DNA of 58,544 nt, the filler included, from Dugesia japonica (Eukaryota), in NCBI GenBank assembly GCA_001938525.1. It is 5 parts of 5 records of this genome, joined end to end, with 100 filler letters (N's around TTAATTAATTAA, not from the genome) between each part and the next. Parts side by side here need not be neighbours in the genome. Positions count along the whole stretch, not along the records: positions 20,438 to 38,638 come from MQRL01602112.1; 4 more parts are not named here. One strand, written 5' to 3'. The number at the start of each line of letters is the position of its first letter. Within the stretch, counting starts at the first letter, position 1. Shown piece by piece: positions 13,121-50,193 of this stretch. The translations under genes and the position numbers were made by a program. Under the pieces are notes generated by a model, which saw only the letters and a program-made list of their open reading frames with translations, ran no database searches and was not told the origin of the DNA.

Positions 13121-14274
13121 ACTTTTCATTCTAAGATTTATTTAAGACAACAACAAAAACACAACAATATCAATTTGTTTTTAAGTAAATTTAAAAGTTT
13201 TATAGATGAGACTTGAACAAAAAATATTATTCATCGAAATATTTTTTAAATAAAATTTCAAAATTCCATATAAAAATGTTTTAAAGAAAATTAAAAAAAT
13301 AATATATTTAATTAATTTTTATTTAATATATTTAAAATTTACAGCAAATTAAAAATTTAATGTTCAGATTTTCATAACATTTAAATACGTAAAATTTTAT
13401 GTTCACAAATTTCTTTTAGGATTTAATAAAATATATTTTAAAAAGTTTAGTTTTTTAAACAGTTAAATACGTAAACTTTTTATGATTATTTAACAAATTT
13501 ATTTTATGATTTAAGTAAAAATATGTAATAAATAATTTAATAATTTCGTCTCATTATACAAAAACTTTGAAATTGCTATNNNNNNNNNNNNNNNNNNNNN
13601 NNNNNNNNNNNNNNNNNNNNNNNNNNNNNNNNNNNNNNNNNNNNNNNNNNNNNNNNNNNNNNNNNNNNNNNNNNNNNNNNNNNNNNNNNNNNNNNNNNNN
13701 NNNNNNNNNNNNNNNNNNNNNNNNNNNNNNNNNNNNNNNNNNNNNNNNNNNNNNNNNNNNNNNNNNNNNNNNNNNNNNNNNNNNNNNNNNNNNNNNNNNN
13801 NNNNNNNNNNNNAAAACCATGTTAAGCATAATAATTGTTTTATATAATTAAATCAATATTAAATATAATCAATATTTCAATTAAATTAAAATCAATACAC
13901 ACAATTTATGAATAAAATTCATCGATACATTATTGATATTTCAAATCAATATATATAAATCAATTTTGAATTATTTTAATTATACTGAAATATTTAAATA
14001 TAATTTCTCTATTTCTTTGATTAACTGATATTAAGATAATGGACATGAATTTTAATTGCTCAATATCATTTAATGGAAATTCTAATGCCATTTTTTAAAT
14101 ATTATTATTCATAATAATAACAATTATAATTAATTCTAATGATAATTAATTAATAATAATAAAATTCATAATTTTATTTTGCGTAAAATTTTTTTAATAA
14201 TTATTTTTTTTCGCCTGAAAAATTATAAATTTCTAATATTTAATAAGTAGAAATTAATTGAGAAACCAACCAAC

Positions 14275-17274: not shown

Positions 17275-18029
17275 TATTTGTAAAATTGATGAAGAAATCA
17301 ATTGAATGAAACAAAACAGTACTGGTAAATCATTCCAAATATAATATGGGTATATTATACTTATTTTTATTAATGAATTTTTAAAATAAATTCAATAATG
17401 ATAATTATTTTTTAAAATAAATTTTTTGTATTGTTTTTGTAGTATTTTGTATATTTTTGTACTATTTTCAAATGATATTTTACATGTAACATTTCAAGTA
17501 GACAATATGTATCCAGTTAAAACTTTAAATAACAATATTTCTCTTTTTATATTTTTAAATTTTATTTATATTTCAAAAATAAAATAGTCAAAAATACCTC
17601 GCAAAATTATGATTTATTTCAATTTAAAATTATTAATTTTTTTAATATTTATTATCTATAGTTTCTTATTTGAGAAAACGCGTTTTTTTGTAGAATTTTC
17701 TGACATTAAAAATTTACATTGTTTTTGTAAAATACATTGGAGACACAAAGGTCCCCATGCGTAAGAATGTAATTATTTTAATTTTATTGCTCTAGGAGAA
17801 TTCTTAAATGAGAACAAATCTAATTAATTTGTATTAATTAAGGCATTTATCTAGAATAATTTAGAAAAATACAAAAATTTATTATTTACGCAATAAGCTT
17901 AACAGTTTCTAAACAAATATAACTATAAAAATGGATTCAAATCAAATTAAAGTTTTTGTACAAAAATTGTGTAGATTTTTAGAAACTAGAATTTGGTTTT
18001 AAATTTTGGAAAATTAAAAATGATATTTT

Positions 18030-19530
18030 TGTCTTTATATACCGTCGTTCCTCTCAATCTTCCTAATACTTTTGACATTAATTTTTGAAAAGTTCCAAGT
18101 GCTACAGCTATACCGAAAGGCATTCTTGTGAAACAATACTGCCAATTTTTCGTAGAAAATGCTGTTTTCTCTTGTGAATATTTATGTAACGGAACTTGAT
18201 AATATGCATTACTCAAATCAAAAGTACTAAAATATCTTGCACCACTCAAATTGTCTAGTATTTCCTCTACATTGGACATNNNNNNNNNNNNNNTTTCTGT
18301 GATTGCATTCAGTTTTCTAAAATCTAGATATAATCTAACGTCTTTCATTTCTTTTTTTCCAAACAGATATTAACGGAGTGTTCCATTGCAAATTGCACTT
18401 TCTAATAATGCCATTATCAAACAAATTCTTGATAGTTTCATCGATCTTATTCTCTAAATGCATTGGTTGTCTCCATGGTTTCGTATTTATTGGTTCTCTA
18501 TTTGTGATTATTTGATGTTCTGCTATTGTTGTTCTGTCGATATCCCAGTTGTCTGCCATGAATATTCCTTTATAAATCATTACAACTTTCTCCAAATTCT
18601 CGTTTGGCTTGCTAATCAATAATTTTATTTCTCTCTGTACTCTCTCTTCTTCCGTTGTATTGCTTTTTATTATTACAAATTATGTCTATTTCTTCTTATG
18701 TAATTATTCGTATTGTTCGAATAATATCTTTGTTTGCCATTTCCGAAATATTTTGTGGCCTGTTCACTTTTATTCTGATAACTAAACTATTTGTTCATAT
18801 TTGTGTAACAGTCCTCTGTGTGGTGTCTTTCTTTTTGCATCTTGAGCAATTAACTTTGGCACAGTCTCTTCTTAAGTGTTGTTCAGATCCAAAAGCATAA
18901 CATTTGTTTTTCTTTCTTGAAAATTTCTGCTTACATTTTGTTTCTGTTCTGCTATATTTCTTCATTACGACTTTTGTTGAAATGTGTTTGTACTGGACTT
19001 CGGTGAACTGCATCTCTGTAGTTACGAAATACATTTATTTCTTCAGTTTTTTATGTCTTCCCACTCTTTTATTCCTTTAAATACATCTTCTACTTTTATG
19101 ATTTTTCCTTATTTGACTTTATTTTTAATCTCTCTATCATTGCAACTATTCATTATTAGCTCTTTTGTTAAGTCATTTTTGTTCCATTTATGAGCCATTA
19201 GCTTTACTACTATTTTTTCTATCTTTTTCTTATAGATCCTCACATGATTTACATTCCTTTGATAAATTAGAGCTTCCTCCATATCTTTAAGCATTGTCAA
19301 TGGCCTAAAAAAGCCTTTCTAAATTTTTCTTCAAATCCTAATGCTTCGTCTTTATTTTCATAGATTTCACGTAGTTCTTTATCTATGAAAGCAACTATAA
19401 ACAAACTCCTATGGCCTTTCTTTGTCCCGGCTATATCAAAATATTACGTTGTCCTCAGAATAAATTTTCAGGAAATTCAAGGATGCATTGCTTCTTTTAG
19501 AAAATCCAATGTTGCATTGGTAGCCATATT
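18030..19530 (-). mobile_element. Ty3/Gypsy gag plus RT N-terminal fragment; protease apparently deleted
   Basis: Zinc knuckles CYAFGSEQHLRRDC and CSRCKK.., then HQIITNREPINTKPWRQP, RLYLDFRKLNAIT, FSTFDLSNAYYQVP and RMPFGI. Confidence 0.85.
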
Positions 19531-20337: not shown

Positions 20338-20437
20338 NNNNNNNNNNNNNNNNNNNNNNNNNNNNNNNNNNNNNNNNNNNNTTAATTAATTAANNNNNNN
20401 NNNNNNNNNNNNNNNNNNNNNNNNNNNNNNNNNNNNN
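20338..20437. other. Artificial scaffold linker 44N-TTAATTAATTAA-44N
   Basis: Same layout as the other three linkers. It truncates the 3' end of the large Gypsy element. Confidence 0.9.
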
Positions 20438-21340
20438 TAATTTACACTAATCGATCAATGGACACATTTAATAGATTGTTATCTGTCTTATCTACTGATT
20501 ATGTGAGTAACGCGCCATCCTGTTCCATCGCCACTTTATTAAATAGCGTATTTTCTATTATGAACTTTAATTTCTTGTTCCCATCTTCTTCTGCTTTTGT
20601 TAGATGAACTCTTTTTTTGCCATATTTTAAATAGATATCTGTTTATGGTGGTGTTAAGAATCTGAATTCTCCTCTCTTCTTATTTCTCTTATTTGATGTT
20701 TCTAACCAACTAAACTCTGGTTCGGTTAGAAATATATCTGTTTCTCGTCCCATTGAATCATCGCTTTAACTATCTGTATAATACGGCATATAAACACAAT
20801 CCTCTCTAACTTGTTCTACCGTAAGATCTTTCAACTGTTCGTCTCCATTATCTGATTCAGTGAGGTCTACAACACGTTTTGGTTCCATAATATCTTCTAT
20901 CTGTTCATCTCCCACGTCAGACCAGTATTCAGTACTGCTATTTATCTGTCCTTCGTCTAAATCACAAGTTTCTTCATGTAAGGGAACTGGGATTTTCTTT
21001 CACTGTTTGACTACCCACTGTTCGTCCTTCTTGCCTTGGATCTCCAGCTGTCTGTTCTCCTCAACCATTTGTCTTCTTATTTCTTCGTCATCTGACTCAG
21101 GACTATATTCGTCACTGCTGCATTCGTCTTTAATTTCATCTTTGACCGACTTGTTGTCGTCATCTCTAGTTCGGCTCGACTTTTGTATCCAGGTCATCTT
21201 CGGATTCAGAATCTAATATCCATCGAATACTTATTGGCTTAACAACTTCTCTAATTGCAATGCCATGCGTCGTGTTCTGATCTTCTTTGATTAATGTCAT
21301 GTTATCAGTTGTCTTTGGTTGTATGGAATCCCTCCATTTC
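20438..21340 (-). pseudogene. Acidic accessory ORF remnant in the 3' region of the Gypsy element
   Basis: The frame of ORF 21000-21197 continues through isolated stops (ECSSDEYSPESDDEE...TEYWSDVGDEQIEDIMEPKRVVDLTESD...) to the gap. No family recognised. Confidence 0.5.
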
Positions 21341-21635
21341 TGCTGATTACATATTTGTTTTTATTGACCTTTGACTGATTATTGCAGATGCAAATTGTTT
21401 GAGTGCTTTTTCTAAAAAAAATAAATAATTAATAATTGATTTTAAGGACTGATTAGTCCTAAATAATGCTACAGGTACTAGTAGCGTACTATATAAATAA
21501 AAATATATATAAATAATAATATAAATTTTTAATATTTTTTGAAAGTTTGACAAAGGGTGTTCAGACCAATGTCCATTGGACATAGTTTGAAATATGTGAG
21601 GTATTGCGACGCTGATAACGCTGCCTCTTCCACCT

Positions 21636-22384
21636 TTATCGCTTATGCATTTGAATTAAGATGACTATGAAAGCGAGGAGGAAGAGTGATGCAATCATTC
21701 CCAGTATTGAAAAAGGGTGATGTAATATTTTTATGTCAAATGGTTTTATTGTTGTCGTAACCCACATCTGTAGAGTTTTCTATCGTAATTGTTGGTAATT
21801 TAATTTCGTGTTATCTTTCAAATTCTCTTTAAATCCTTTAAAGTTTCTGTCTGTATTCACATTTGTCGTCGTTTTTATTGTAGTACTAGTATATACTAGT
21901 GTACTATGATGAATAGTTGTTTCTATTTGTGATTTGGTTGTATGCAACTTTTTATGTTTTGTGGGAGTAGTTATTAATCTTATTTGTGGTAGAACTTGTT
22001 TGTTTGGTAGTGTAGTAAACATATGTTGTTCTAATGACCTGGTTCCGTTTATCCAATAATTTATCCAAGTTCTATATTTTGTGCTGGCCTCTAGTCTTTT
22101 TATCTCTATCTGGCCTATCCCCTTGTTAAATTTCATTGGTATTGGTATGAAGACCTATTTTTTCCGGTGTATGCAATCGATATATCTCTGACGTATGCGA
22201 TTGGTCTATCCTTTATCGTTGCAGCGATCATTATATTATCAGGTGCTCTGAGTATAATTCTATCTGAATAAGTTATTCTTGTTATGTAACTAGAACCTTT
22301 ACTCTTCTCTAGTTGAGCTATACTTACTGTCAACAATGTCAATAAAGTTAGTGCAAAAAGTGGTACTGTGCTTTTTGACCCTGA
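21636..22384 (-). pseudogene. Putative type I membrane protein: signal peptide, FN3-like beta domain, Thr-rich stalk, TM helix; starts in frame after the integrase
   Basis: HKYNL*SGSKSTVPLFALTLLTLLTVSIAQ; after a frameshift, IEIKRLEASTKYRTWINYW, TSTTIKTTT and FSILGMIASLFLLAFIVILI-QMHKR. Confidence 0.6.
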
Positions 22385-23543
22385 TCAAAGATTGTATTTA
22401 TGTTGCTTTTGAGATTCAATTTCCACTTCTGCTACTTTACATCTGTTGACGGCAACAATTATTGGATCATTTTGTTTATTTTTTATCACATGCAGATTTG
22501 TAGGATTTACTTTTATTACCTCATATAGGCCTTTGTAAGGTCTTGCTAATTTATTTGTTAATCCCTTCTGTGTAACTGGCGTTTTTATTCTCACTTTGTC
22601 TCCAACTTTAAAACTAGATTCTTTGGTTATTTTGATCATAATAATCTTTGCATTGTTTCTGTTTAAACTTTACTTTTAGATTTGCCTGTTTATATACCTG
22701 TTGTAATCTTTCCTGCATTTTTGTAGCGTAATTTGGATTGTCCATATACTGCGACACAATTGGTTCAAATGTTATATCTATTGGCATATGAGTTTTTCTG
22801 AGATACATAAGGTAAAATGGTGAATATCCCGTAGCTTCGTTCTCAGTTGTATTATGTATGAACAATGTTGGTTTAATAAATAGATCCCAATCATTTTGAT
22901 GTTTATTCATGGAGACTGCCAATCTATTATTACCNTCAGTTTGTGGGTGATAAGCCGTTGTATTTATTTTCTTAATATCAAACATATTTGTTACTCTTTG
23001 TATGACTTTGTTGAAGAAATTCTTTCTTCTATCTGATAACAGCGTTCTTGGCGCTCCATATTTGTAGATTATTTTCTCAACTAATAACCTTGCTACTGTA
23101 TCTGCTGTTTCATCTTTTTTTGGAAATGCTTCTGCCCATTTTGTAAAATAATCATTGAATACTAATATGTGTTTGTTACCCTTTATAATTGTTGGTGATT
23201 TGCATAGGAAATCCATTGCATATGTTTCCATTGATGACCTGGGTATTGGAATTGGTTGTGATGGAACTTTGGTTTTTGTTCCTGTTTTTTCTTTTAGCAC
23301 AAATGCTACATGCTTGGCACCTTTTTTTATATTTTCTTTAATATTATCCCAAAAATATTTTTGTAGTAATCTTGATGTGGTTTTTCTTCTTGATAAATGN
23401 CCTTCAAGCGCTCCATCATGATATTGTAGCAGTAATAATTGTTTTAAAGAATCTGGTACAATCATTAGATTTTTCCCTAAATTATTGTACATGAGCAAAT
23501 TCTTAACCATTTTATATTTAGTATTCTTTTCTTGAATCATCAT
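22385..23543 (-). pseudogene. Integrase (HHCC, DDE core, GPY/F), frameshifted
   Basis: QYHDGALEGHLS, YAMDF, DYFTKWAEAFP, LLSDR, TTAYHPQT and FKVGDKVRI..RPYKGLYEV. Confidence 0.95.
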
Positions 23544-23689
23544 CTTTTTAATGTCTTTTGTTTTTTATCTTTATTTTACTCTTCTAGAAACGTTTTCGAG
23601 TTTGTTTCAGTCATAACGATTGACATCATTTCCATTATATTTATTTCAGGAATTCTTGATAATGAATCAGCATTTTTATTTGCTTTACC

Positions 23690-25012
23690 TGGCTTGTATA
23701 TTATACGAATACTCATATCCTGAATTTTCATTGCCCATTTCAATATCCTACTGGATACATCTTTTTTTTTCCATAAACTCTCTAATGGTTTATGATCAGT
23801 TCGGATAACTATCTCTGTTCCATTTATATATATGGTCTAAATTGTTTCAACGCAAATATGATAGGTAAACATTCTTTTTCGATTGTTGAATATCTTTTTT
23901 CTGCTTCTTTTAACATTCTACTGGCATATGCAATGACATAATCTTTATTCTTTTCGTCCACCTGACCATGGTACTGCTCCCATAGCATATCCACTTGCAT
24001 CTGTCATCACTATGAATTGCTTTGTAAAGTCAGGATATCTTAATATCGGAGCTGTTAGCAATCGTTGTTTTAATGTGTCGAAAGCTTCCGGTTGTTTTGT
24101 ATCCCATTGTTTTTGAGGTTTCTTTGGTTTTTCATCTAATGGCTCTACAATCATGACGTTTTTACGTTCGTCTTTAGTCTTCATACCCTTTGTTAATTCT
24201 ACCAATGGTGATGATATTTTTTGCGAAATCTTGTATGAATCTTCGATAATATCCCACTAGACCATTAAATCCTTGTAATTGTTGTACGCTTTTTGGCACA
24301 TTAAAATCTTGGAACGCTTTAGCCTTCTTTGGATTTGGCTCTAATCTCTTTGATGACACAATATGTCTGAGAAATAAAATACTTTCCTCTGCCCATTTGC
24401 AGTTTGTGTGTTTTAACTTGATTTGTGCTTTTCTAATTATGAACAGTACATTTTCTATGTTAACTAAATGTTTTTCAAATGTTTCAGATGCTATGAGTAT
24501 ATCATCTATATATACAACTACATGTTCAACACCTGTTAAAACTGTGTTCATTTATCTTTGGAATGTAGCTGGTGCATTACATAATCCAAATGGTAGTCTA
24601 ACAAATTTATATAATACATCATCAGTACAAAATGCTGTTTTCTCTCGATCTTCTTCCTGTACTAGGATTACATTTTAACCTTTATTAGCATCCAAACTTG
24701 CAAAGTATTTTGCATTCATTAACTTGTTGAACTGTTCATGTATTTTTGGAAATGAGTGTGTATCCTTTTTGTAACTTTATTAAGTTTTCTGTAATCAATA
24801 CAAATTCTAATCTCGCCGTCTTTCTTTTTGACTGGTACCATTGGTGATGCCCATTGGGAAAAACTATCTTGTATGATTCCATTCGCTTTCAGTTTTGCTA
24901 CATGTCTTTTTATTTCTGGTCTTAACGCATATGGTGCTACATATGGTCGCTGTTTTATCGTTCTTGCGTCACCTGTATCAATTATATGTTTTATAATATT
25001 TGTTCCTCCCAT
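23690..25012 (-). pseudogene. Reverse transcriptase plus RNase H of the Gypsy element
   Basis: [86 protein letters not shown] and YKPGKANKNADSLSR. Confidence 0.95.
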
Positions 25013-25639
25013 ATCAAATTCATGTTTAGCGAATGCATCTTCATATTTGTCTAGTAATTTCTGTAATTGCTGTTGCTAATTTATTGTGAGATTTTTATTG
25101 GTTATCTTTGTTTCCTCATAATACTTTGTTTGCTTTTGTTTTATTAGTTCTTTGTCAGTTAGTTTTCCAGTTTTTTCCTGTTTCTCCAGAATAAGTTCAG
25201 CTAATTCAAGATTATTTAATTTACATCTCTTTTTTCCTGATTTCATATTTGGAAATTGTTTATTTTATCTCTGTACATTTACTCTCTTTTGTTGCTCCTC
25301 CGCTACAGTTTCATATATTTCATATTCATTCCCATTCTCAAATAATTTTCCTAATTTTGTGTTTTTCTGGAGAAATACATCATAGTTGTTATAGTTGGCT
25401 ATTCTCATTGGTATTATCCCTTTTTTTGGTTGTACACATACAGGCATTATTGATAAGTTGTGTTTTTTTATTAATTTATCATTTGGTTCAAAAATATATG
25501 ACTTGTTATTTTGTACTTCTGTATTTATAGGCATTACACATTCACTACAGCGTTCTACTGTTATTAAGTCTGTTGCACATTTCACATTACATTCATCTTA
25601 CACTGGTAATGGTGTTACCATTTTTAGTGTGCCATCTTG

Positions 25640-25940
25640 TAAATCAATAACATAATCTTTTAACCTTGCCAGAAAATCTTTACCCAAAATGCAATTATGT
25701 GTTCTTCTTTCCATATGTGTAACAATTTCTTGTCCAATTGTAACCTTACACTCCATTATGCCTTTCGTTGTTATTATATGCCCTGTAAATGATTTTATAC
25801 CTTCCTGTTTATAATTCTTTATTTTCTGTCTTTGGGATTTACTTAAACATGATTCTTTTATTATTGAACATACTGCTCCTGTATCTATTAATGAAGTTAT
25901 ACTTATTCTATTTATTATGATGTCTGTTGTTGGTCTATTA
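25640..25940 (-). pseudogene. Retropepsin (aspartic protease), in the same ORF (25598-26680) as the glycoprotein C-terminus
   Basis: ITSLIDTGAVCSII ... CILGKDFLARL. Confidence 0.95.
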
Positions 25941-26159
25941 TTGTCTGAATCTATAACTGATATTGAATAGTTGTTTTGATATTTATATTGTGTTGAATCA
26001 TCTATTTTTATATGTTTTAATTCGATGTGTTCTTGTTTATATGGTTTATATTCTGTATCTGATGGTTTATCATTACTTAATTTGGTCAATTCTTGCTCAT
26101 CATCCATGTTTACTGTATATATACCTCGATCCTTTTCTAGATTCTTTATTTTTTCACTA

Positions 26160-27660
26160 TGATTTTGCACAATCATGTGTTTCGCAATAAATGGACAAAA
26201 ACATGCTCCTAGTTTCCATGTGTAACCGAAAATTGCATGATGACCTGCTAATTTTAAAAATGTTAAGACATACCACCCAAATAAAATACATAAGAATATA
26301 TTGCCAAACCATTGCATTCCCTCCAAAAATCTATCTAAAAAATTACGCATTGCCTTTTTAAAATGATCTGCGTGTAATAGTGATTCAAAATTTACATCGT
26401 CTCCATTACTCCCTTTCGCTACTTTATCAACCATTATTGATATTATTTTTTCTCTTTGTATTGGAAAAGGCATATGTTTTCTTGCTTTCTCAATATCGTT
26501 AATTGTATAAATACCACGGTTTTCCATATTATCAATCCTTTCCATTTCTGTTTTTCTACTGAGTTCTATCATTTCCATCATCAGTGGAGTTGGTGCTGTC
26601 TTTCTGTCCGACACTGTTATCCATACCTCTTCAGTTAGTTTGTACATAGGATCAAGAATATTACTACACTTTTCAATCACTTTTGGTTAAAAATTTTATC
26701 TGTTAGAATTCTTGTTATTGGAAGCAAAAATACTTTCTCTACCTTATAAATTACTGGTAATTCATTAGTACATTTTTCATGATCTGTAAGCATAACTGCT
26801 ACTGGTTTACATTTAAAACTCACTCAAGTTTCTCCCACTATTCTTCCAAATCTTCCTCTTTCTTCAAACAAGAATGGTGTTATTAAATCCGGATTTGTGA
26901 CTACCATTGCCATTTTTGCTCTTAACAATTCTCGATTAGTTTTGCAAATTTTTATCATTGTTTCTTGATATATTCTATCTACTTGTCTTATAATTTCATG
27001 ATAGAGAAAATCAATTTTGTTGTTGAAATATGTAGCTATTTGTACGTCCAATTTATCTACCTTTGGTCTGACATCTTTAATTTCTATTGTTTATAGATAC
27101 AGCCCATTATAATTTGTAACTGTCACTGCCACTCCACACTTTGTACCTACTCATTTTTCAATAAGTCTTAATGCCTCTTGTGTTGAATTTGATATATATA
27201 CTGTTGGTGTTGCCTTTTCACCAATCAGGGTTGCTTTCCTTTTTGCATCTTGTATGTTAGGTGGCTTATCCGTTGGTAAAGTTCCACTAACTTTTCTCAT
27301 TACCACTGCCCTTAATTTCGTACGTGTACATTCAAATGGATTTACTTTATACAGGATCATAGACTCTCCAGTGTCACAACTTATATCTTTTGAGCTACAA
27401 AATGGATATGTCATCATCTTCTTCTTCAAATTTTACGCTACATTCATGCGTCTACATGTGCGAAATCAGATTCTTGATATAAATGTATGATTTTTGGATT
27501 TGATATTTTTATTTTCGTCGGATGCGCCTCCGGACATTCTCAACATCTAATAATGAGTACTTTTACCCCATTTTGGAGTATTACAATCATATGCTACCAT
27601 CGCATTTGCTCCTCTTGCTAACTCTAATAGCATTATTATAATTGTTATTATTGTACCCAT
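26160..27660 (-). pseudogene. Envelope glycoprotein, chuvirus-like class III fusion family, fragmented
   Basis: Signal peptide MGTIITIIIMLLELARGANA, then MVAYDC..YSLLDVEEC..IHLYQE. Core DVQIATYFNNKIDFL..KICKTNRELL..GRIVGE..FKCKPVAV..CTNELPV..FLLPITRIL..CSNILDPMY. TM WFGNIFLCILFGWYVLTFLKL. The motif order matches chuvirus-type glycoproteins. Confidence 0.85.
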
Positions 27661-27762
27661 TAGTGGTCGATTTGATTTTTTGGTCTCTTTGTTAATGAGT
27701 TTCTTTATTTCATCCTCCTGCTCTGTTGGCTGAATTTTTTGTTTACGATTACTTGTTGGATA

Positions 27763-28122
27763 TAACGTTTCCAAACCTCCTTCTTGCGTGATCCACGCGT
27801 TAATTCCTCTGTTCAAAAACTGATTAACTATTCGTTCTACAACTTCAATGTTTTTTTCAGGTCTCTAAACTAATTCTTCCCGATTCTTGAGTATTAGATA
27901 CAAAATAGCTGTAACTACCTTATTTTTGTTTATTCCTTCATTCATCATTGTTTTTAATACTTTATAATCATCAATTTCTAGATCTGTTATTATCAATTTG
28001 CTCACTTCTTTTAATATGAGTTTCATTTCCTCGAATATCATTAGTGCTCTATTCTGAGTTATTATACAATCATATAGATCAGCGTGTACCAATTTAATTA
28101 GGCTTCTTATAAGTCCTTGATC
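27763..28122 (-). pseudogene. Bcl-2-like helical domain (one in-frame stop at 27865-27867)
   Basis: BH1-like MMNEGINKNKVVTAILYL (cf. LFRDGVNWGRIVAFF) and BH2-like FLNRGINAWITQEGGLETL (cf. YLNRHLHTWIQDNGGWDAF), at plausible spacing in one frame. Confidence 0.65.
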
Positions 28123-28469
28123 TGATCCTGCTGATGCTTGCTCATCACATCTTTATGATATATTATTCAAATGTTAAGCCTGCAATTTTTCTGGTATTAT
28201 ATCCTATGATTTTGGTCTACCTCTTGATCTCTTGTAGTCTGATACTTTGTCTTTAAATATTTTCTGTCTTAGTATTTCACTTCTTGCATTATCTGATGTT
28301 GATGATTTTCCAACTCTTGTGCTTGATGTTGGTAGCTATTTTGTCTTTTTTTTGTCTTTTTTTCTTGCTGGCTTGCTCTTTCTTCCTAGACTCTATCTGC
28401 TTGTGCCATCATACTCAAAATTTCCTACATAGATGGTTGTTGATTATTTTTTATGCTTGTGATGTATGT

Positions 28470-28714
28470 TTCATTATCGTTGCTTTTATGATGGTAACAT
28501 TACCTGGAATAATTCCATATTCCATCAAAGTATTATTCTCATTTAACTCTGTATTATAAAAAGATAATTGTATCACATTTTCATTTTGTAACACTATTGG
28601 CCAATCTCTTTTCAACGTTTTATATAATTTATTCGTTTTTGTACACGCATGCATCGTCAGTTCTAATGCTGTTAAAGAACAATCGTTTTGTTCTGCTATT
28701 ACTTTGACATTTAA
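28470..28714 (-). pseudogene. Ubiquitin-like (beta-grasp) domain
   Basis: LNVKVIA..ALELTM..TKTNKLYKTLK..IQLSFYNTELNENNTLMEYGI (cf. [21 protein letters not shown]). Confidence 0.65.
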
Positions 28715-29099
28715 CGACTCCTGTCAGGTTTCATTTCTTTTCACATGTTCACTATATTTTTGAAATATCTCATCTATTGCTTCCAAATTCTCTGATATCT
28801 CTATTTTACTTCGAATTTTTGCTAAAATGATTATTATTAGTTTAATTTTCTGAAGGTTGATAGGATATTCATTAATATCTTTCAAATATTGCAAGAATCT
28901 AAGTTTATTAGTTCTTTCTTTTGTTATCTCTAATCGGACATTCTCTATCAATATTTCTTGCTTCCTTTCATCAATTGCATCTAAATCCACTTCTCTTGGC
29001 TCACACATATTGATTTCATATTTCTCTCTCTTGCTGTCTCTCCATCATAAGCTGATAATGTATTTTCATATCTTCTAACTCACTTCTCATATTTTCATA

Positions 29100-30269
29100 A
29101 GCTTCATTATCGATTACTTCAATAGCATTAGCTTCTCTTGTATCTGGACTGAATGATACATCTTCTTTTAGAATACTTCTAAATTCATTTGGTTTATTTC
29201 TACTTACTCTTGCTATATATTCATATTTATTACAATTATAACACTTTATTTGCTCACTGTTGTTTAATTTATCTCTACTTTCATTTGAAAAATACGGGCT
29301 TGGACTTTTTATATTATCATATTTCTTTGGACTATATCTCGATTATCTCGATTATATCCTCTTGCAGGACTTGCGTTCCTGTCATAATTTCTACCTGGGT
29401 TGAAATTTTTATTATAATTGTTATAATTTCTTCCAGGACTCGAATTTCGATTTTAATTGTTATAGCTCTTTCCGGGGCTTGAATTTCTATTGTAGTTATT
29501 GTAATTTCTCCCAGGACTTGAGTTTCTGCTGTAATTGCTATCATTTCTTTGATAATATTCCGTTTTAAATATCACATCTTGATGTTTTCTACTATCTTGA
29601 CGATTTTGATATGCTTTCCTCATCTCATTCCATGACGATTCCTCGTTACTCGCTTCAATTGTATATATTTATCTGGTTTTCTCTTTATGCTTAGTATTCG
29701 CCTCAATTTGCTTTGCTTTTGTTGTTAGTTCCTCTAAATCTTTATATTCTGCTGCAATTAGACCATCTCGAATATGTTTATGTGTCCCATTCAGAAATTG
29801 AAATTCTATGATATGACCAGTATTATCTCCTTTTCCAAAAGCTTGTTCTGCTAACCTTGTTAATTCGTATATATATATTCGCTCACGGTTACATTTGATG
29901 ACTGTGTTCTATATCTGAACTTTTGCATGCAGACTCTTTCTGATTCACTTGGGACTATTATATTTTTATCAACTTTTTTATTAACTCATCCGATTTATCA
30001 GGTTTAACATCCATATTTTTGTAACATTTTAATGCATATTCCTTCAAATAAAGTGGTAATCGTTTAACTAATTCTGCTTCTGTCCATCCACAAGCTGTGG
30101 CACAAACATGCATATGCTCAAAGTATTAGTCCAATTCTCCAGGTTTCTTTGCATAAAACTGTATGAGTAATACATTCAATGTACCGCGGTATCCAAATCC
30201 ATCACCTATTTGATCATTAATCGGTAAATTTTTAAGTGGCATATTTTCATTATTATTTGCCGCCGCCAT
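29100..30269 (-). pseudogene. gag: gag (capsid, 13-aa repeats, degenerate zinc knuckle)
   Basis: ATG at 30269 (MAAANNNE). CATACGWTEAELVKRLPLYLKEYAL is a Ty3-capsid-like motif. Knuckle remnant CYNCNKYEYIARVS at ~29215-29256. Confidence 0.85.
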
Positions 30270-30646
30270 TTTTTGGATATTTCTGTTTCGCAACTTGTAT
30301 ACTATATTCTCTTCAATGATTATTCCTTCAGTTTCGTTTCAACTGATACACTAATCAAAAAAATTCTTCGGTTTCGTTTCAACTGATAAACTTTGAATGA
30401 CTGTTAACTTTATTATTTTAAGGGAACTGATTTTATATTATCAAAACTTTGGTAAGAGATTGCGGCAGGAATTCAATCCGATTCTAATACCAAACTTAAG
30501 ATAATCAAATTTATCAACTTTGATAAGAGATCGTAGTATAATTTTCTCTTATATCTGATATCAAACTGATCAATACACGGTATATTTTAATAAAGGTCTG
30601 AACATCCGCTTGATTTTAGATTAATTTTAATAATTTTTATTATTTT

Positions 30647-30667
30647 GATTCCTTGTTCGCGGCACCA
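30647..30667 (-). promoter_or_regulatory. Primer binding site, tRNA-His-like
   Basis: The minus strand TGGTGCCGCGAACAAGGAATC lies 4 nt downstream of the LTR end. It is complementary to a tRNA 3' end ...TCGCGGCACCA, resembling the His acceptor ...CACGGCA-CCA. Confidence 0.8.
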
Positions 30668-30671
30668 ATTT

Positions 30672-31540
30672 TGTTGGGTATTTCTACTCAACAAGTTATT
30701 TTATGGTTCGTTTGTTTTATAACTATTGTTCGATAGTATGTCAATGAATTTAAGGGTGTTTGAATTTACCCTGTATATGTTAATACGATATTATATAATA
30801 TATACCTTTAACTGAAAATTATAAATAATGTAATATGTGTAAGTACCCTATATATATAAACCAAAGATATACCTTTTACAATAATATATTTGGATGTATA
30901 AAATAATATAGGTACAAGCTTAAGACCTCATTAAGCAGTATTCTAAATCAGGTTGACGATGCCGCCCAGAGAGGTTGGATGTCAACTGACTAAAAGTTAC
31001 TGAACCACCACTGAAACAGATTAGTATTTATACTAATTCTGACCAGTAGATTTTCACACACACATAACATTAAAATATATCAATTAATAAAATAAATAAC
31101 ACCTGTATTTGTTTTCACAAAAAAATCAATAAAAATATATTAATTCCCCAATGTAGATTAAATTCCAATAATTTTTTTATACTCAATGCACAAAATTTAT
31201 TATAACAAAATTAATCAATAATTCAAATAAATAAAGTCAATTTTCTATGTACCAAATTTCTTACAACAAAAATCAATTAATAATTTCATTTACAAAATAA
31301 ATAAAGTCAGATAAATAATTTGAAAATCATTTAATTAAATAGCCAATTAAATAGGATGGGGATCCATTATTTTTGATGATTAATGAGTTTGGATTTGGAG
31401 CTGGAGGATATTGATTTGATTTGATTCTTTTTTTTCTTTTCATTGATTTCAAATATATATTTATTTACATGCTATGTATATGTATCTATATGTGTTTATT
31501 ACTTTGTGATATATGTATCTATTGCTTTGTAACCTCAACA
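30672..31540 (-). repeat. 5' LTR (~870 bp)
   Basis: Bounded by inverted TGTTG...CAACA termini and directly adjacent to the PBS. The outer boundary is inferred because no second LTR is available. Confidence 0.65.
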
Positions 31541-31550
31541 ACTATTCAAA

Positions 31551-31557
31551 TAATAAA

Positions 31558-31602
<45 letters not shown>
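31551..31602. repeat. (AAT)n microsatellite
   Basis: Direct reading. Confidence 0.95.
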
Positions 31603-32605
31603 CTTGGAAACTAAAAATATTTATATAACAAATCCTATACAGAAAATGTTTAGTTTTTAATTCTATGACGATCAATACCAATTTCAAAACCATACGATAA
31701 AATTTAACCGAAAATTTAAAAAACAAATTTTTGATATTCGAATTTCACAAGCTAAAATTTGACCGTTCTAGCCCGAATTTAAAACCTTTCTCATGGATTC
31801 GTAACATCCAATCGAAATATTGCATGTTAAAAACAGCAAAACAGTCAAAATGTCAAAAACAGTCAGCGGCGGGGAAGACTATTCACTTGCGCTATTATCT
31901 ACCTACTATTTGAGTTCACATTGAATTTGAAAATAAAACTAAATTATTTTATATTTCTAATATATACTTGAATATAACGCTTGCCTACTTTATTCGGGGA
32001 AGACAGTTGTAATCTCTTAATATCTACTTGTATATATGAATCATTAATTTCAATGAAAATTAAATTATGTAGTATCAATTTATGCCTTTACTCTACTAAC
32101 TTAACTATAATTCTTACATGAATTAAGAAAGTAATTCTCTGCAAAATAATTCATGCCCATCACCTCCCTTTCAAAATTTGAATACTTACTTTTGAGTAAT
32201 TTATACAATGTTTTATTTGTTAATTTTTTTCAATAATAATTATACAATAGTAAATATTTTTTTCTAGTCACCATAAATTCTTGTTAATCATTGCGTTTGC
32301 ATTTTTATTAAGACCAAAAGATCATTTTAGTTTAGTTTAGTCTTAGACTAAATATTTTTAAAAGATCTTTTTAAAAAATATTAGAAGAAATAAAAATATT
32401 GTTTGAAAACTCTAAATAAATTAGCACTTATTTGTATTTGTTGATGACTTCTTATTAAGAAGTTTTAATTAAGTTTTCTAAAAAATAAAATTTATCAAAC
32501 TTATTAAATGTAATACTAATTTTAATTTAGAAATTTTATCAAAGACTTAATTAAAAGATAACTATTTGTGTAAAATAATTTTTAAATAAATTCTCAGTTT
32601 TTCTA

Positions 32606-33210
32606 ATGAGTTCTCAAAATATTCCTCCACCTCCGCAATATCCAAATTATTCTAATAATGATTTAGCAGGTAAAATTGTAAATGGTATTTATATAAATAA
32701 CTTTTTGAAATTTCAGAAGCAAATATTTCCAAGGAAGGGTCAATAATGGAAAATTCAGTTGTAATTTAATAATAAATTTTGTAAACGGTGTAATGATGAA
32801 TTATTGCTAGATTTATATCTCAGACAATGGATCTCCAAATTATAAGTCGACACTATATAATACACCAAATCAGATCTTACCGAATCTTGTAAATTCAATA
32901 AACAGCACATATCAAAATTTACCTCCAAAAAGTCCTAAATCGAACTACAGAAATGTAATAAATAGCAACAATAATAACAGTGGTCTCATGAATAACAACA
33001 ACATTGACAATCACAATAATTTAATGAGTAATAACATAAATAATCTTCAAAAAATACCAACTCAATGGCGACCGCAACCGATAATGGAGAATTCTTTCCC
33101 TAATGACTTCCATGGTATTCCACGCATCTATCAGAACAGCAACAGTAATTTCAATACGAAACCGATCCAACCGCAATATTGGATGATGAAACCGAAAGAA
33201 GAATGGGAAG
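32606..33210 (+). CDS. First three coding exons (32606-32669, 32717-32760, 32811-33210) of an unidentified N/P/Q-rich host protein
   Basis: ATG, then two GT-AG introns of 47 and 50 bp with consistent phases, giving an open frame MSSQNIPPPPQYPNYSNNDLAEANISKEGSIMENSVIYISDNGSP...YWMMKPKEEWE. Donor at 33211. Confidence 0.7.
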
Positions 33211-33299
33211 GTTCGATTTGATTTATTATTTTAATATTTTATTTTACCTGCAAAATTTATCAAATTTAATAATCGATTAAATAATTTTTAATTGATTTT

Positions 33300-34945
33300 A
33301 ATATGAAATATGAATATGTAGTTTATTTAATTAATAATAATAAATGAATTAATCAAATATTAATTAATTAAATAATAAATAATCAAATATTAATTTATCA
33401 AATATTTATTAATTAATCAAAAAATAACTAATTAAATATTAATTAATCATATATTAAGTAATAATTCAAATATTTATTAATTAATCAAATATTAATTAAA
33501 TAAATATTAATTTATTTTATCAAATATTCAAATATTAATCAAGAATTAATTAATCAAATAATAAATAACCCAATATTAATTAATCGTATATAAAGTAATT
33601 AATCAAATATTTAATAATTAATCAAATATTAATTAATTTTCAAATAATTATTAATCAAATATTAATTAATTTATCAATTATTAATAAATTAAATATTAAT
33701 TAATTTATTAAATATTAATTTATCAAAAATAAATTAATTAATCAAATATTTAATAATTAATCCAATATTAATTTATAAAATTTTTTTAAATCAAATATTA
33801 ATTAATCAAATATTAATTAATCGTATATAAATTAATCGTATATTAAGTAATTAATCAAATATTTTTTAATTAATCAAATATTTAATAATTTATCAAATAT
33901 TAATTTATTTTTCAAATAATTATTAATCAAATATTAATTAATTTATCAAATATTAATTTATCAAAAATAAATTAATTAATCCAATATTAATTTATCAAAT
34001 TTTTTTAAATCAAATATTAATTAATCAAATATTAATTAATTTATCAAATATTAATTTATCATAAATAAATTAATTAATCAAATAATAAATAATCAAATTT
34101 TAATTAATTAATAAAATATTAATTAATCAAATATTAATTAATTTATCAAATATTAACCTATCAAATATTAATTTTATCAAAATATAATTTATTAATCAAA
34201 TATTAATTAATTAAATAAATCTTAATTTATCAAATATTCAAATATTAATCAAGAATTAACTAATCAAATAATAAATAATCAAATTTTAATTAATGAATAA
34301 AATATTAATTAATAAATTATTTAATAATTAATACAATATTAATTTATCAAAATATAATTAATTAATCTAATATTTTTTAATCAAATTATTATGTTTTAAA
34401 TATTTATTAACTAAATAAATATTAATTAATCAAATATTAATTAATTAAATAAATATTAATTTTATCAAGTATTCAAATATTAATCAAGAATTAATTAATC
34501 AAATAATAAATAATCCAATATTAATTAATCGTATATTAAGTAATTAATCAAATATTTTTTAATTAATCAAATATTTAATAATTAATCAAATATTAATTAA
34601 TGAAATAATTATTAATTTATCAAATAATAATTTTCTCAAAATATAATTAATTAATCAAATACTAATAAATTTATCAAAAATTTATTAATTAATCATATTA
34701 ATTAATTAATCAAATATTTATTATTTAATCAAATAATTATTAATCAAATATTTATGAATTAATCCAATAATTATTAATCAAATTTTAATTAATTAATTAA
34801 ATATTAATTAATCAAATCATTAATAATTAATCAAATATTAATTAATTAAGTATTAATTAATTAATCAAATATTATTTAATCAAATATTGATTAATAAAAT
34901 ATTAATTAATTAATCAAATAATCAAATTAAATAAATAAATCAAAT
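33300..34945. repeat. Degenerate extremely AT-rich satellite built from AATCAAATATT/AATTAATT units
   Basis: About 1.6 kb of near-continuous variants with almost no G on the + strand. Confidence 0.9.
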
Positions 34946-34949
34946 TTTC

Positions 34950-35480
34950 GACCAATGATATTCTGAACCAATCTGTTGTCATGGAGAGAGTGATGAATGC
35001 ACTATGAGAAAGAAGCATTTTGCAATAGTAATTTATAGGCAGTTTTTAATTCTGTGTCGAATGATACCAAATTCGAAAACATAAACACACACACAGTGAG
35101 AATGGCGTATTCTTCTGTATTTTGATTGTTTCATATTGACCCACAAAGAAACAGACAAATTGAAAGACAGTTGAGAACAATTCGAGATTTAATTAATGCG
35201 ACATTTCAGGAGAGAAAGACAACAGATTTGACAGATCTATTAGCAGGAAATAGAATTCACGATAAACACATGAAAGCAGAAGACGACTGGAAAGAGCCCG
35301 ACTGAGATCGTATTTGGAAAGAAAATTTGCAGGGAAAAAAAGTGGTGCGAGTCAGACTTTTAGAGAGGAAAATAAGAAAAAAAGATAACAAAATTTCTTG
35401 ATTGTTACACTTATTGAGCGGGAGGTTACAGATTTCCACGAGAGGAATAGAGGGCCCAGAGGTAAATGGAGGGGGGCATT
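34950..35480 (+). mobile_element. Ty3/Gypsy integrase fragment with PPT
   Basis: IERQLRTIRDLINATF..EFTINT..TGKSPTEIVFG, related to 11133-11690. PPT GGAGGGGGGC at ~35468-35477. Confidence 0.75.
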
Positions 35481-35990
35481 AGGACAGTCGAGAAGTACGG
35501 TCGAGGCGTATAATATGACAAAGCTTAAATATGGAAATTAAAAATCAAGAATTAACATAAATCAATAATAAATATTTGTGATCGATTAGTAATATAGAAG
35601 TTATTATTGCTATTATTTTTATAATTATCCATAAATCTGTTGAAAAGTTAGTTTATTTCAATTTTAATCTTTGCCTTACCGTGATAAAAAAAAGTTACTC
35701 ACGTTCCTCTGTTGTTACGATTTATAATAATATACGGAGAGCTCTAAAAAAACTGTGCTCAACATCAAATAATGACCAAGATGAAAACGTTAACAATAAT
35801 CAAGAAAAAGTAACTATAAAACACTCATTCTTGGAAGGATCTAAATCATTATAATGCTCCCTCATTTTGATGATGATGATAAATTTAGATTAATTTTCAC
35901 TTCAAAGAAAACCTCAAGTTATTATTNNNNNNNNNNNNNNNNNNNNNNNNNNNNNNNNNNNNNNNNNNNNNNNNNNNNNNNNNNNNNNNN

Positions 35991-36322
35991 AAAATAAAGA
36001 AAAAGCTTCGATCAAAATGAAATGTATTTGTAAAAAAGTTCAAATTTTCGACAATAGTCTTCTTCAGGAACATGACGACTTATTGATTGATTCAAAACAA
36101 TAGATCTTTGTTACTCAATTCTTTAGATTTTATCGGATTTTTATTGGTTTATTTAACAAAAAAATAAAATAAAAATCTGATAAAATCTAAAGAATTGAGT
36201 AACAAAGATCTATTGTTTTGAAGCAATCAAGAAGTTGTCATGTTCCTGAAGAAGACTATTGTCGAAAATTTGAACTTTTATACAAATCCATTTTATTTTG
36301 ATGGAAGCTTTTTCTTTATTTT
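35991..36322. mobile_element. Long palindrome (~155-bp arms) with a minimal hammerhead ribozyme in each arm
   Basis: The arms are near-perfect reverse complements. Hammerheads at 36242-36275 (+) and 36038-36071 (-). Confidence 0.8.
36242..36275 (+). ncRNA. Minimal type I hammerhead ribozyme
   Basis: GTTC-CTGAAGA-A-GAC tatt GTC-GAAA-AT-TT-GAAC: stem I GTTC/GAAC and 3-bp stem II. The cleavage-site base is U, which is non-canonical. Confidence 0.7.
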
Positions 36323-36359
36323 AATGAAATAACAAATCTACAACATCAAAAGCTTTGCT

Positions 36360-36880
36360 CGCTAACCTAGTTTATCAATTTAATTGTAACGGGTGTGATG
36401 CCATGTACATTACAGAGACAAAACTTCATCTCCGCCCACACGAGTTAGCGAGCATATATATATTGAGTAGGAAAAGTGCGGTTTTAGATGATGTCTGTTG
36501 CTGCAAATATAGAAAAGAAAAATAAGCATTGATGAGTTTACAGTTTTGAACAGCGGTTTTGGTAACTATTCTGAAAGAATTGCATGTGAGGCTTTGAGAA
36601 TTAGGTTGCATAATTCGATTATTCTTAATACTCAGATTGACACACACACACACATATATTCACTTTACAATTTATTTTAATCTTATTTTATTGGATTGAT
36701 TACGTAACAGGTTTTATTGGCCAGTATATAAACAAGTTCCTCTCTTATTTTACAACAGTAACTGATGATGGACAACATAGATTTGTCCGAAACATACCTT
36801 GCAAATAAAAATAAATAAAAATCAGAAACAAACGATTTAAAATCGGTTTAAAAAAAGTATATTTATAGACATTTATAGCG
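36360..36880 (+). mobile_element. Penelope-like element: GIY-YIG endonuclease remnant plus 3' pLTR with degenerate hammerhead (36758-36802)
   Basis: LVYQFNCNGCDAMYITETK..TRVSEH ... CEALRIR..ILNTQ, then CTGATGA T GGACAA-catagat-TTGTCC GAAAC. Confidence 0.75.
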
Positions 36881-37191
36881 TTTAATTAGTCACAGCAACA
36901 TAAAGAATTCAGCAAACCGAATACTTTATCGTCTATAAAATGGGTTTATCAGACTTTTCAAATTTTGTACCAGATAAATATGAAACAAAAGTCTATGTAC
37001 CACGATAAAAGCATTTTGCCATTAAAAATCAATTCATTCTAAATGGAGTGTATATAATCAAAGAATAAAACACTTTAAAATTTAAATAATAACAAAATAG
37101 AAACGACTGCAAATGAAATTTTTTTTTCTGTAAAAATTGTACCACTAAAAATATTGTAATTTACCACAGTTTGAGAACCATTGGTCTATAA

Positions 37192-38236
37192 CAGAGGTCG
37201 GCAACATTAATAAACCAAAGAACCAATAATTGAATTATTTTTTTTTCGAGAGCCAAACTTCAAATTTAAAATGTGAAATTTGTTATTAATAGTAAAAATA
37301 CAAATATTTAAATACATTGAATAACACTGTTGAATACTGTTCAATTTCGTGACTGGGATGAGGTTCTAAATCAGCTGTAATACTGGATACAGCAACTCTT
37401 AAATCGCTTTCTAAATTCCGATTGGTCAAATTTGCTCTCGTTTTACCTTTAACAAAAGTTAACTTGAAAAAAATGCTTCGTATTGATAAATGTACTTTCA
37501 AAGCATGCTCTCTTATTTTTTTATATGCATTTCTTTTAGGAATTTCTTATAAAACTATGTAATATCTTCATTAGCAAAAAATATATTCCTAAGTTCATTG
37601 TTCCATTGTAAAGATATCAGTTCTACAATTGCAATTATTGCGAGAATAACTGTTGGACGTAACCATTGATCGTTTTTCAGAATTCATTTAAAATTAAAGC
37701 TTCGATCAAAAAAAATTTTTTTATTGTTTTTTTTAGATTGATTCGATAATTCGATTTAGTCTTCGTCAGGAATTGACATTTGAAAAAATCAATTCCTGAC
37801 GACTAAATCGAATTATCGAATCAATCTAAAAAAATACAATAAAAAAAAATTTTTTTTTTTTCATCAAAGCTTTTATTTTAAATGAATTCTATCAGTTCTA
37901 GTTGATATTTTTTGTGTACAGAATTTACGACCAGAATATATCAAAATATAACAATGATCCTACTTTATTTATTATTGCAATCTTTACTATCACAACAATT
38001 CTTTTTAATTCTTTTATTAAAAAATAGCCAAGAAATAACAATTTTAAAACAAAATATTAAACAATCATTGTGATTACGGCGTATTTTCATTTATTCAGTA
38101 TATTTTACTATAATAATCATTTCAGCTTGAAACACAATAAAAAAAACAATATTACTATAAAAAATATTAAAAATTAAAATTTTTGAAATATTACTTAAGA
38201 GCCACAAAATATGATTATAGGAGTCATTTGTGGCTC
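37192..38236 (-). mobile_element. hAT (Buster/Charlie-like) deletion derivative
   Basis: Terminus CAGAGGTCGGCAAC. Transposase C-term KLTFVKGKTRANLTNRNLESDLRVAVSSI..HPSH and QLELI.LQ. Subterminal GAGCCACA..TGTGGCTC. The right end is approximate. Confidence 0.75.
37626..37889. mobile_element. 264-bp palindromic hammerhead-bearing insertion with 11-bp TSD
   Basis: TATCAGTTCTA at 37615-37625 and 37890-37900. Inverted arms at ~37680-37776 and ~37789-37889. CTGACGA-A-GAC..GAA core at 37741-37773 (-). Confidence 0.8.
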
Positions 38237-38638
38237 AATTATAGACTCTGTAACAATTATTTACGTGAGTACTCCTGCTTAAAATGACTATCAGTTGCAA
38301 CACAAAAGCTACTACTGAAGGCACTTGATTGTATTCAGTCACGCGCTTCTCAGTACATTCATGTAAAAAGAGAGCGAATGAGTGAAGACGACTAGTAGGG
38401 GAATTATCTACACTTCTCACAACGAATGCAATAATATTCAATTAATTGATTTCTTTAATATTTGATAAAAACTTTAATAATTTCAAAATCGATTCACAAC
38501 AAATTTATATTTAATAAATATTTTTATAAATATTTAAAAACACTCCAATTTTTTATTATTAAATATAATATCCGTGAACTTTATGTCTGTTAGCGTTATG
38601 TCGCGGAACCAGTAAACTGTAAAGAATTTCTAAAGTAG

Positions 38639-38794: not shown

Positions 38795-39090
38795 ATGAAA
38801 AAATATTACGGCAGAAGTGTATTGTCATAAAATCGATAAATTGAGCCAGAAATTGAAGCTGAGGTATTCGGCCATTATCAGCCGAAATAACTCACTACTT
38901 CTTTACAACGCCTGTCCAAAAGTCGAACAATATACGCTACAAAACTTAAAGCAGTTAGGTTACAATATTCTGCTCCACCGTGCATATTCACCAAACAAAT
39001 CTCGCTTACAAATTACCATTTTTTCAAGCATTTGGAGAAGTAAATTGAAGATTAAAAACTACCATTTATTTCTTTACAATCCAATTTACA
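38795..39090 (+). mobile_element. mariner transposase fragment
   Basis: ITAEVYCHKIDKL..LLLYNACP..LKQLGYNILLHRAYSP. Confidence 0.8.
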
Positions 39091-39785
39091 AAATGAAACT
39101 TACTTTTCACTTTGATTTATGTATAAAAAATTATTCGTTATTTTTCGAAAATAATTTTAATAGATTGACTGAAAATTTACGATTAAAAATATATTTTTCG
39201 TGAATAAAATATTGAAAAAATTAATTAAATTATAATGAAGACACTTTTAAATTGAAATTGAACATGCGAAAATAATTTTGAAAATTAATCCATTGTTTAA
39301 ATTCATCAATTTAAATCAAGATGAACATATAAATAAATTTCAAGTTATTTGTGTTTGTTAAGTNNNNNNNNNNNNNNNNNNNNNNNNNNNNNNNNNNNNN
39401 NNNNNNNNNNNNNNNNNNNNNNNNNNNNNNNNNNNNNNNAAAAAATTTATTAAAATGAAATTTCACGTTTGAATTTTAAACATATTATAAAGGTTAATAA
39501 ATATATAAAAATTATATCAAACGTAAACCTCGAATTTATCAATTTTTTTTACTTTTGGTTTCATTTAATTAGTCCATATTTTTAATTATTAATAAATTAT
39601 ATATTTTTTATAGATTAAAATTAAAAATAATTAACTTAATAATTTTAACAAAACTTACTTCAAATTTTATTACTGTTTAATTTGAATTTTTATAATTAAC
39701 CNTAAAATAGCTGATAAAGCTTAAATCTCAATATGCAGATATAAATTAATTCAAATGACGAAATTATTATACAAGTATTTTAATA

Positions 39786-50136: not shown

Positions 50137-50193
50137 TATTAGGTAATTAAAAATTTGTACATTAAATTATGAATAATGATTCTAAATTTCCAG

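Follow-up and report, generated by a model that had tools for sequence, protein, structure and literature searches.

The window analysed here is a stretch of 58,544 nucleotides (nt) made of five joined Dugesia japonica records (GCA_001938525.1), in which positions 20438-38638 come from MQRL01602112.1, and the element under study occupies its minus strand at 20438-31540. This element very probably belongs to an abundant Ty3/gypsy long terminal repeat (LTR) retrotransposon family, as a copy that has decayed and lost its 3' end; its domains run from Gag through a ubiquitin-like domain (UBL), a likely Bcl-2-like domain, Env, protease (PR), reverse transcriptase (RT), RNase H (RH) and integrase (IN) to a second membrane protein, and it is likely a compact relative of Burro and of the Smed_errantivirus elements. 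We observed the domain identities and their order, an Env-PR junction that is still open, and natural relatives that encode the layout in a single open reading frame (ORF). A more specific reading, put forward tentatively, is that the family may be a distinct, very abundant, compact (~3,000 amino acids, aa) Burro-like lineage that represents the conserved core of its group: a repeatable unit of four-helix bundle and ubiquitin-like domain, a Bcl-2-like part tail-anchored by the Env signal, a further surface protein after the integrase, and thereby a four-pass polyprotein, reminiscent of flaviviruses, that carries two surface proteins.

Env and protease share an open frame

The stop-to-stop ORF at 25598-26686 (minus strand) encodes 362 aa and contains both a membrane segment, the Env anchor at ~26299, and the retropepsin motif LIDTGA (DTG at 25888). 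The C-terminal third of PF24664 (Monjiviricetes viral fusion glycoprotein) matched ORF residues 6-209 (E = 9.4e-20) and a retroviral aspartyl protease matched residues 249-343 in the same frame (E = 2.5e-06). A run of 362 stop-free codons has a chance of ~5e-15 given the local base composition. The natural relative P0004 aligned with the ORF in one gap-poor block (residues 7-346, 28% identity, E = 8e-40); here P numbers denote natural relative proteins, L001-L004 four fetched metagenome loci, and L005 a viral contig. Compensating frameshifts can hide inside a stop-free stretch of a dead copy, as they do in the integrase of this one, but they are argued against here because P0004, P0009 and P0010 align with the Env-PR frame in a single frame. 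We consider the fusion frame confirmed. It is the sole junction still open in the window copy, which elsewhere is interrupted by stops and frame changes.

A first-pass annotation of this DNA had proposed a stop-free ORF running from the glycoprotein and its transmembrane segment into the retropepsin, and this holds, with the upper coordinate at 26686 rather than 26680. It had also placed the glycoprotein N-terminus, and ahead of it UBL, Bcl-2-like and gag regions, upstream on the same strand. The N-terminus was recovered there (hydrophobic signal at ~27663-27607, AYDC at 27594, and a PF24664 match given in Table 1), as were a ubiquitin fold, a Gag and, less firmly, the Bcl-2-like region.

Natural relatives encode the same order in single polyproteins

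A representative protein search returned 61 proteins with E values up to 0.001, and domains were scanned in 17 proteins (16 of the 61 plus P0001). PF24664 and a protease were found in one chain in 11 of the 17, four of which also carry an RT; the other six comprised three env proteins without a protease, one protein with pol only and two unrelated proteins. P0043 and P0046 were rejected as relatives, being unrelated, low-complexity matches. An alignment query matched 4 of 598 metagenome stretches and 1 of 150 viral stretches. Single-protein queries in the first scan matched none of 117 metagenome and none of 9 viral contig stretches, and a word-index search with the Env-PR ORF among longer proteins gave no match in 1,824 candidates.

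P0063 (4,844 aa) and P0066 (3,003 aa) carry PF24664 and the protease in one chain and extend from Env through IN to a terminal membrane protein, and P0010 is a single-ORF relative of 2,627 aa. L002, which is collinear with the window, has one frame of 3,703 aa. In it Gag, which has two zinc knuckles, is followed by two helix+UBL modules (identified by eye, one of them with a Pfam ubiquitin match at E = 0.018) and a Bcl-2-like stretch; next come Env and two protease-like domains, and last RT, RH, IN and a membrane protein. In L004 a frame of 2,693 aa extends from Gag past IN, with PF24664 and protease in one chain and without UBL or Bcl-2 matches. The Gag-Env junction, which is broken in the window copy, is open in L002, P0002 and P0010. 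From the Gag start codon at 30269 to the post-IN anchor at ~21600 the window copy spans ~2,900 codons, plus ~110 that are missing from env. Its Env-to-RT spacing of ~1,026 codons plus these ~110, compared with 1,107 in P0010 and 1,093 in P0041, fits the compact type with one protease. Four hydrophobic peaks lie at corresponding positions in the relatives. The proposal of a single ancestral polyprotein of ~3000 aa ending in a membrane protein is thus supported by L002, L004, P0010 and P0066, and the proposed order Gag-UBL-Bcl2-Env-PR-RT-RH-IN-membrane protein is also supported, with L002 carrying it unbroken.

The relatives also differ in detail. Several protease-like domains per chain were seen in P0002, P0003, P0063 (with up to six protease motif matches), P0066, L001 and L002, and the window has one. 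L001 has an extra signal-plus-anchor module between its protease-like domains (by eye). In L003, an element open in every other respect, a lone stop at 3058-3060 separates the Bcl-2-like part from the Env signal; it may reflect decay or read-through. A DEDD exonuclease ORF (PF00929) lies 3' of the polyprotein in L001 (10617-12107, E = 1.4e-05) and L002 (12085-13473, E = 0.0011); no counterpart was seen in the window.

In the integrase tree the window groups with env-bearing polyproteins (support 99/98). In the env tree, which left out seven near-duplicate ids, the window falls among 16 other rows, comprising 15 retroelement-type chains and one long-branched stand-alone protein, and this group is separated from five stand-alone glycoproteins with support of 100/99. 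L005 is a contig of a chuvirus-like negative-strand RNA virus with a polymerase (L), a PF24664 glycoprotein (G) and a third ORF. Its G is just 24% identical to P0001, which suggests that the capture of the glycoprotein is old.

These comparisons bear on whether the layout could be a chimera, produced either by the separate insertion of a chuvirus-like glycoprotein into an ordinary gypsy element or by a mis-join of the assembly near 26000 or 27700. The assembly has many runs of N, the whole stretch is not bridged by any contig among those listed, and L005 is an example of a chuvirus-like genome whose G is related. However, P0004 spans the Env-PR junction in one block, P0001 and P0005 align across the Bcl2-Env junction, L002 and L003 are collinear with the window from Gag to Env, and the window env clusters with retroelement envs, away from stand-alone glycoproteins. 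Because natural relatives such as L002 carry the order in one unbroken frame, a chimeric origin appears largely refuted and we regard it as extremely improbable.

Anatomy and state of the window copy

The features of the element are listed in Table 1. The 5' LTR is given as a candidate because it has no partner: when 30400-33300 and the entire element were compared with the window by blastn, no second LTR was found. A joint from 31298 to 21420, present in one run, coincides with a short inverted match, and no 3' LTR was placed on the strength of it. No tRNA genes were found in the window. The Gag remnant matched the Gag of P0009 by BLASTP (E = 3e-04 and 1e-05) and those of L002 and L003 by tblastx, and no Pfam Gag family matched any of the 23 pieces of the element that were scanned.

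Table 1. Features of the Dugesia japonica element, listed from its 5' to its 3' end in window positions.
Feature	Position	Strand	Basis
Candidate 5' LTR, 869 bp, TGTTG start, CAACA end	30672..31540	-	Termini located; no partner LTR in the window
Motif resembling a primer-binding site (PBS), TGG start	30655..30667	-	4 nt past candidate LTR
Gag remnant: capsid-like part, N/R/S-rich repeats, one degenerate zinc knuckle (29243), several frames	29016..30269	-	BLASTP, tblastx
Four-helix bundle, then ubiquitin/SUMO-like domain	28451..29008	-	Fold model, structure search, Pfam
Divergent Bcl-2-like domain, one internal stop	27721..28158	-	Pfam, profile
Env internal signal peptide	27595..27663	-	Hydropathy peak 1.84 just ahead of AYDC; same position in relatives
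Env ectodomain, N-terminal two thirds, with stops and frame changes	26683..27594	-	PF24664 E 4.6e-28; tblastn of P0001, P0066
Stop-free frame: Env C-terminal ectodomain, anchor, cytoplasmic linker, retropepsin	25598..26686	-	Pfam, alignment, hydropathy
PR-RT spacer, position of Burro's dUTPase-like motif	25265..25597	-	Matches spacers of P0063, P0010, P0011
Reverse transcriptase remnant, YIDD at 24515	24174..25075	-	PF00078 E 2.2e-18
Connection and RNase H remnant	23576..24256	-	PF17919 E 9.1e-15; PF17917 E 4.3e-07
Integrase remnant with GPY/F-type tail	22388..23564	-	PF17921 E 1.2e-09; PF00665 E 3.7e-09
Post-integrase type I membrane protein remnant: signal, T-rich stalk, anchor ~21710, basic tail	21603..22384	-	Hydropathy
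Acidic reading-frame remnant, 3' region; probably an accessory ORF	20502..21197	-	Covered by contigs of 4/4 runs
Gap at 3' end of element	20338..20437		Two runs of 44 N

The fold model of the four-helix+UBL segment had a predicted local distance difference test (pLDDT) score of 77.8. Its UBL aligned with ubiquitin-like chains with a VIA-align Z of 11.5 and a root-mean-square deviation of 1.7 A over 75 residues, Foldseek returned SUMO and ubiquitin matches for the model, and the segment matched PF11976 (E = 0.02). A four-helix bundle ahead of the UBL (28724-29008 in the window) is also present in P0066, P0039, P0002, P0010 and L002, and P0066 and L002 each carry the bundle+UBL pair twice. The rows of the fold search leave the bundle uncovered, and its six members have no Pfam family in common; it may resemble TFIIS-N/LEDGF-IBD domains. 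For the Bcl-2-like segment, a four-sequence profile matched Bcl-xL (E = 0.0009) in a list made up mostly of Bcl-2 family chains. A sequence search of Env against solved structures gave no match, and its class III fold is taken from PF24664 and from the parts of PMC13524379 that deal with such envelopes.

Downstream of the open frame, the PR-RT spacer matched the spacers of P0063, P0010 and P0011 (E = 7e-11 to 3e-10) and no Pfam family. The pol region shares 40-47% identity with gypsy-type polyproteins, and its RNase H and H2C2 integrase profiles are of the gypsy type. A BEL/Pao affiliation was ruled out, as pol is gypsy-type and no BEL-type family matched. The CxxC of the integrase zinc finger is in a different frame from the long stop-free stretch. 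The post-IN protein has hydropathy peaks of 1.99 and 2.88, a two-peak layout also found in P0003, P0010, P0032, P0063, P0066, L001 and L002; at the sequence level none of its matches was significant (best E = 0.19). The acidic frame had no match in Pfam or among the fetched relative proteins. The 3' end of the element is cut off by the gap at 20437.

Between Env and IN the window copy aligned with P0066 in eight collinear blocks, with 11 stops and six frame changes. Near 27440, residues 131-242 of P0001 face just 14 bases, leaving ~110 env codons missing. This stretch falls in the domain I-II region aligned in a supplement of PMC13524379, the region in which the fusion loops are placed, so the window copy has probably lost its fusion loops. 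With its stops, frameshifts and env deletion the copy is dead, and it is truncated at the 3' end; the potential infectivity that had been suggested is excluded for this copy. The family itself is abundant and diverged: contigs from 4/4 runs cover all 30 bins of the element, with 3,282 to 23,791 pieces per run, mostly 90-95% alike and dominated by transitions, although this coverage gives no copy number.

Several observations weigh against our interpretation of the element. Neither an LTR pair nor a target-site duplication was seen within the window, and no single contig among those listed spans the whole element. The Bcl-2-like segment alone matched PF00452 at E = 0.044, making it a moderate call; its fold model was unusable (pLDDT 44), and the BH1 motif of Bcl-xL is kept neither in the window nor in the relatives. 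In the RT tree 7 of 11 inner branches are open and the window rows form long branches, and the env tree carries long-branch warnings. In 8/8 profiled sequences the Env anchor is followed by a weaker second hydrophobic stretch, which has consequences for the topology discussed below.

Comparison with Burro and other env-bearing retroelements

Published elements are compared here by means of the Burro section of PMC6431247, passages and a supplementary alignment of PMC13524379, and passages of the other papers cited. Planarian Burro/GYPSM1 elements have Ubi/SUMO, BCL2 and env in frame, within an ORF of 4,873-5,140 aa and an element of >30 kb that also has MATH, BIR, ankyrin and SMC domains (Arkhipova and Yushenova 2019, PMC6431247, where Jurka 2007 and Grohme 2018 are cited). 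BURRO1 is transcribed upon PIWI loss (PMC8532177). The window shares with these elements Gag, a Ubi2/SUMO-like domain (PF11976) ahead of the BCL2-like domain (a moderate call in the window), the latter ahead of an in-frame env akin to mononegavirus-type fusion glycoproteins, and, past the protease and a spacer, a Ty3/gypsy pol ordered PR-RT-RH-IN. The comparison with Burro that the first-pass annotation had recommended was therefore apt. The window differs in size (~3,000 codons versus 4,873-5,140 aa) and in having one degenerate zinc knuckle where Burro has 2-3; its candidate LTR is 0.87 kb, and this copy is dead. MATH, BIR, ankyrin and SMC had no Pfam match in the 23 pieces, and there is little spare room for them. 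The Burro section of PMC6431247 makes no mention of a post-integrase membrane protein, and neither this protein nor the four-helix partner is mentioned in the passages of PMC6431247 and PMC13524379.

GAG-ENV-POL errantiviruses with gB-type envelopes are described from flatworms, nematodes and bryozoans and do not form one clade (eLife 2026, PMC13524379). Six such elements in Schmidtea span 14.5-18 kb and have 1 to 215 intact copies (PMC13524379). The window shares with the HSV/gB-type errantiviruses of Platyhelminthes the GAG-ENV-POL order, a gB/chuvirus-type env with signal and anchor, and a gypsy pol. These published elements are intact and LTR-flanked, whereas the window copy is broken and has one LTR candidate. 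In Smed_errantivirus_3, the sole Smed row counted, 54 of 110 env residues are identical to the window by eye, a likeness above the 32-38% of Smed_errantivirus_3 to Smed_1 and Smed_2. The words Bcl and ubiquitin are absent from the main text of PMC13524379. Env likewise precedes pol in the nematode GAG-ENV-POL metaviruses of Sacco et al. 2022 (cited in PMC13524379). Anakin (PMC7642597) has a glycoprotein of the same superfamily in an LTR element, but its pol is BEL/Pao and that of the window gypsy-type.

Since Burro's size and accessory domains are lacking, we class the element as Burro-like and not as Burro. It could instead be a remnant of a true giant Burro (~4,900 aa) that lost MATH, BIR, ankyrin and other blocks after insertion, an explanation that we judge unlikely. 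The window copy has already lost its ~110 env codons, decaying Burro fragments are reported in a third planarian (PMC6431247), and Smed_errantivirus_3, the closest published element by eye, spans 14.5 kb. The spacing of the window copy, however, matches that of natural compact polyproteins such as P0010 and L004, and contigs at least 80% alike cover 30/30 bins with no pile-up of molecule ends among the rows listed, which is a weak argument.

A compact member of the flatworm GAG-ENV-POL group that would work like Burro thus appears the better description, with Burro1-4 compared by their descriptions only. The suggestion of a possibly undescribed lineage is not supported, the layout being in print for Burro/GYPSM1 (PMC6431247) and for GAG-ENV-POL errantiviruses (PMC13524379). 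What is new is the compact variant. No published description of a compact Burro-like family was found; subscription papers, Repbase reports and the figure supplements of PMC13524379 may hold one.

Other features of the window

Further gypsy elements, more distantly related, have left remnants (RT, RNase H and integrase) at 11136-13177 and 17986-18679 (minus), and a 484-codon frame at 1484-2935 (plus) resembles, by eye, a non-LTR or Penelope-type reverse transcriptase. The segments 33323-34937 and 35991-36322 hold a very AT-rich satellite with a 15/19-bp repeat and a hairpin (164-nt arms, 93% complementarity) that adjoins a run of N. Two adjoining frames at 50166-51412 (plus) resemble a TENT5/FAM46 nucleotidyltransferase gene, and 44805-45224 (minus) is probably a dynein heavy chain exon of the host. 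The fragments at 53751-57381 (minus) resemble a Polinton/Maverick-type protein-primed DNA polymerase B, and those at 38799-39200 and 40033-40452 (plus) a Tc1/mariner-like transposase.

A proposed topology for the intact polyprotein

Membrane-protein rules suggest how the single polyprotein of the intact family might be arranged. As in flaviviruses and alphaviruses, the chain would cross the membrane of the endoplasmic reticulum four times, first with the signal and the anchor of Env and then with those of the post-IN protein, leaving Gag, the UBL module, the Bcl-2-like fold and pol on the cytosolic side. The internal signal peptide would target the class III fusogen to the lumen, where signal peptidase would free Env, and the signal peptide would stay behind as a tail anchor for the Bcl-2-like part. 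At the Env anchor the chain would come back to the cytosol, so that PR-RT-RH-IN is initially tethered to the Env tail, and Env trimers could then concentrate and activate the protease at the budding site, coupling maturation to budding. The second signal and anchor past the integrase would display another surface protein, and the UBL and Bcl-2-like parts may dampen SUMO/ubiquitin silencing or cell death. The outcome would be enveloped particles moving between host cells. We read the second hydrophobic stretch after the Env anchor as probably membrane-associated and not spanning; if it does span the membrane, the four-pass topology is wrong.

The family might alternatively act inside the cell only, with Env, UBL and Bcl-2-like parts as passengers or membrane tethers and no cell-to-cell spread. 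No infectivity is shown in the passages of PMC6431247 or PMC13524379, and both the lost BH1 motif and the stop right after the Bcl-2-like part of L003 would be in keeping with such a life cycle. Yet an alignment of eight env sequences at 34-45% identity has 35 invariant columns, six of which are cysteines, and this shows that the fusogen is under selection; the Env signal and anchor are also retained. We therefore consider a purely intracellular family improbable and prefer one that would form enveloped particles.

The window copy is capable of none of the proposed steps, and it is a poor object for functional study because it is dead and truncated. Intact copies exist elsewhere, and the compact variant helps to define the core modules of the group. 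A single polyprotein of this kind would yield Gag, fusogen and enzymes in a fixed, equal ratio, with pol tethered to the Env tail, which is a different design for an enveloped retroelement and one already known from Burro.

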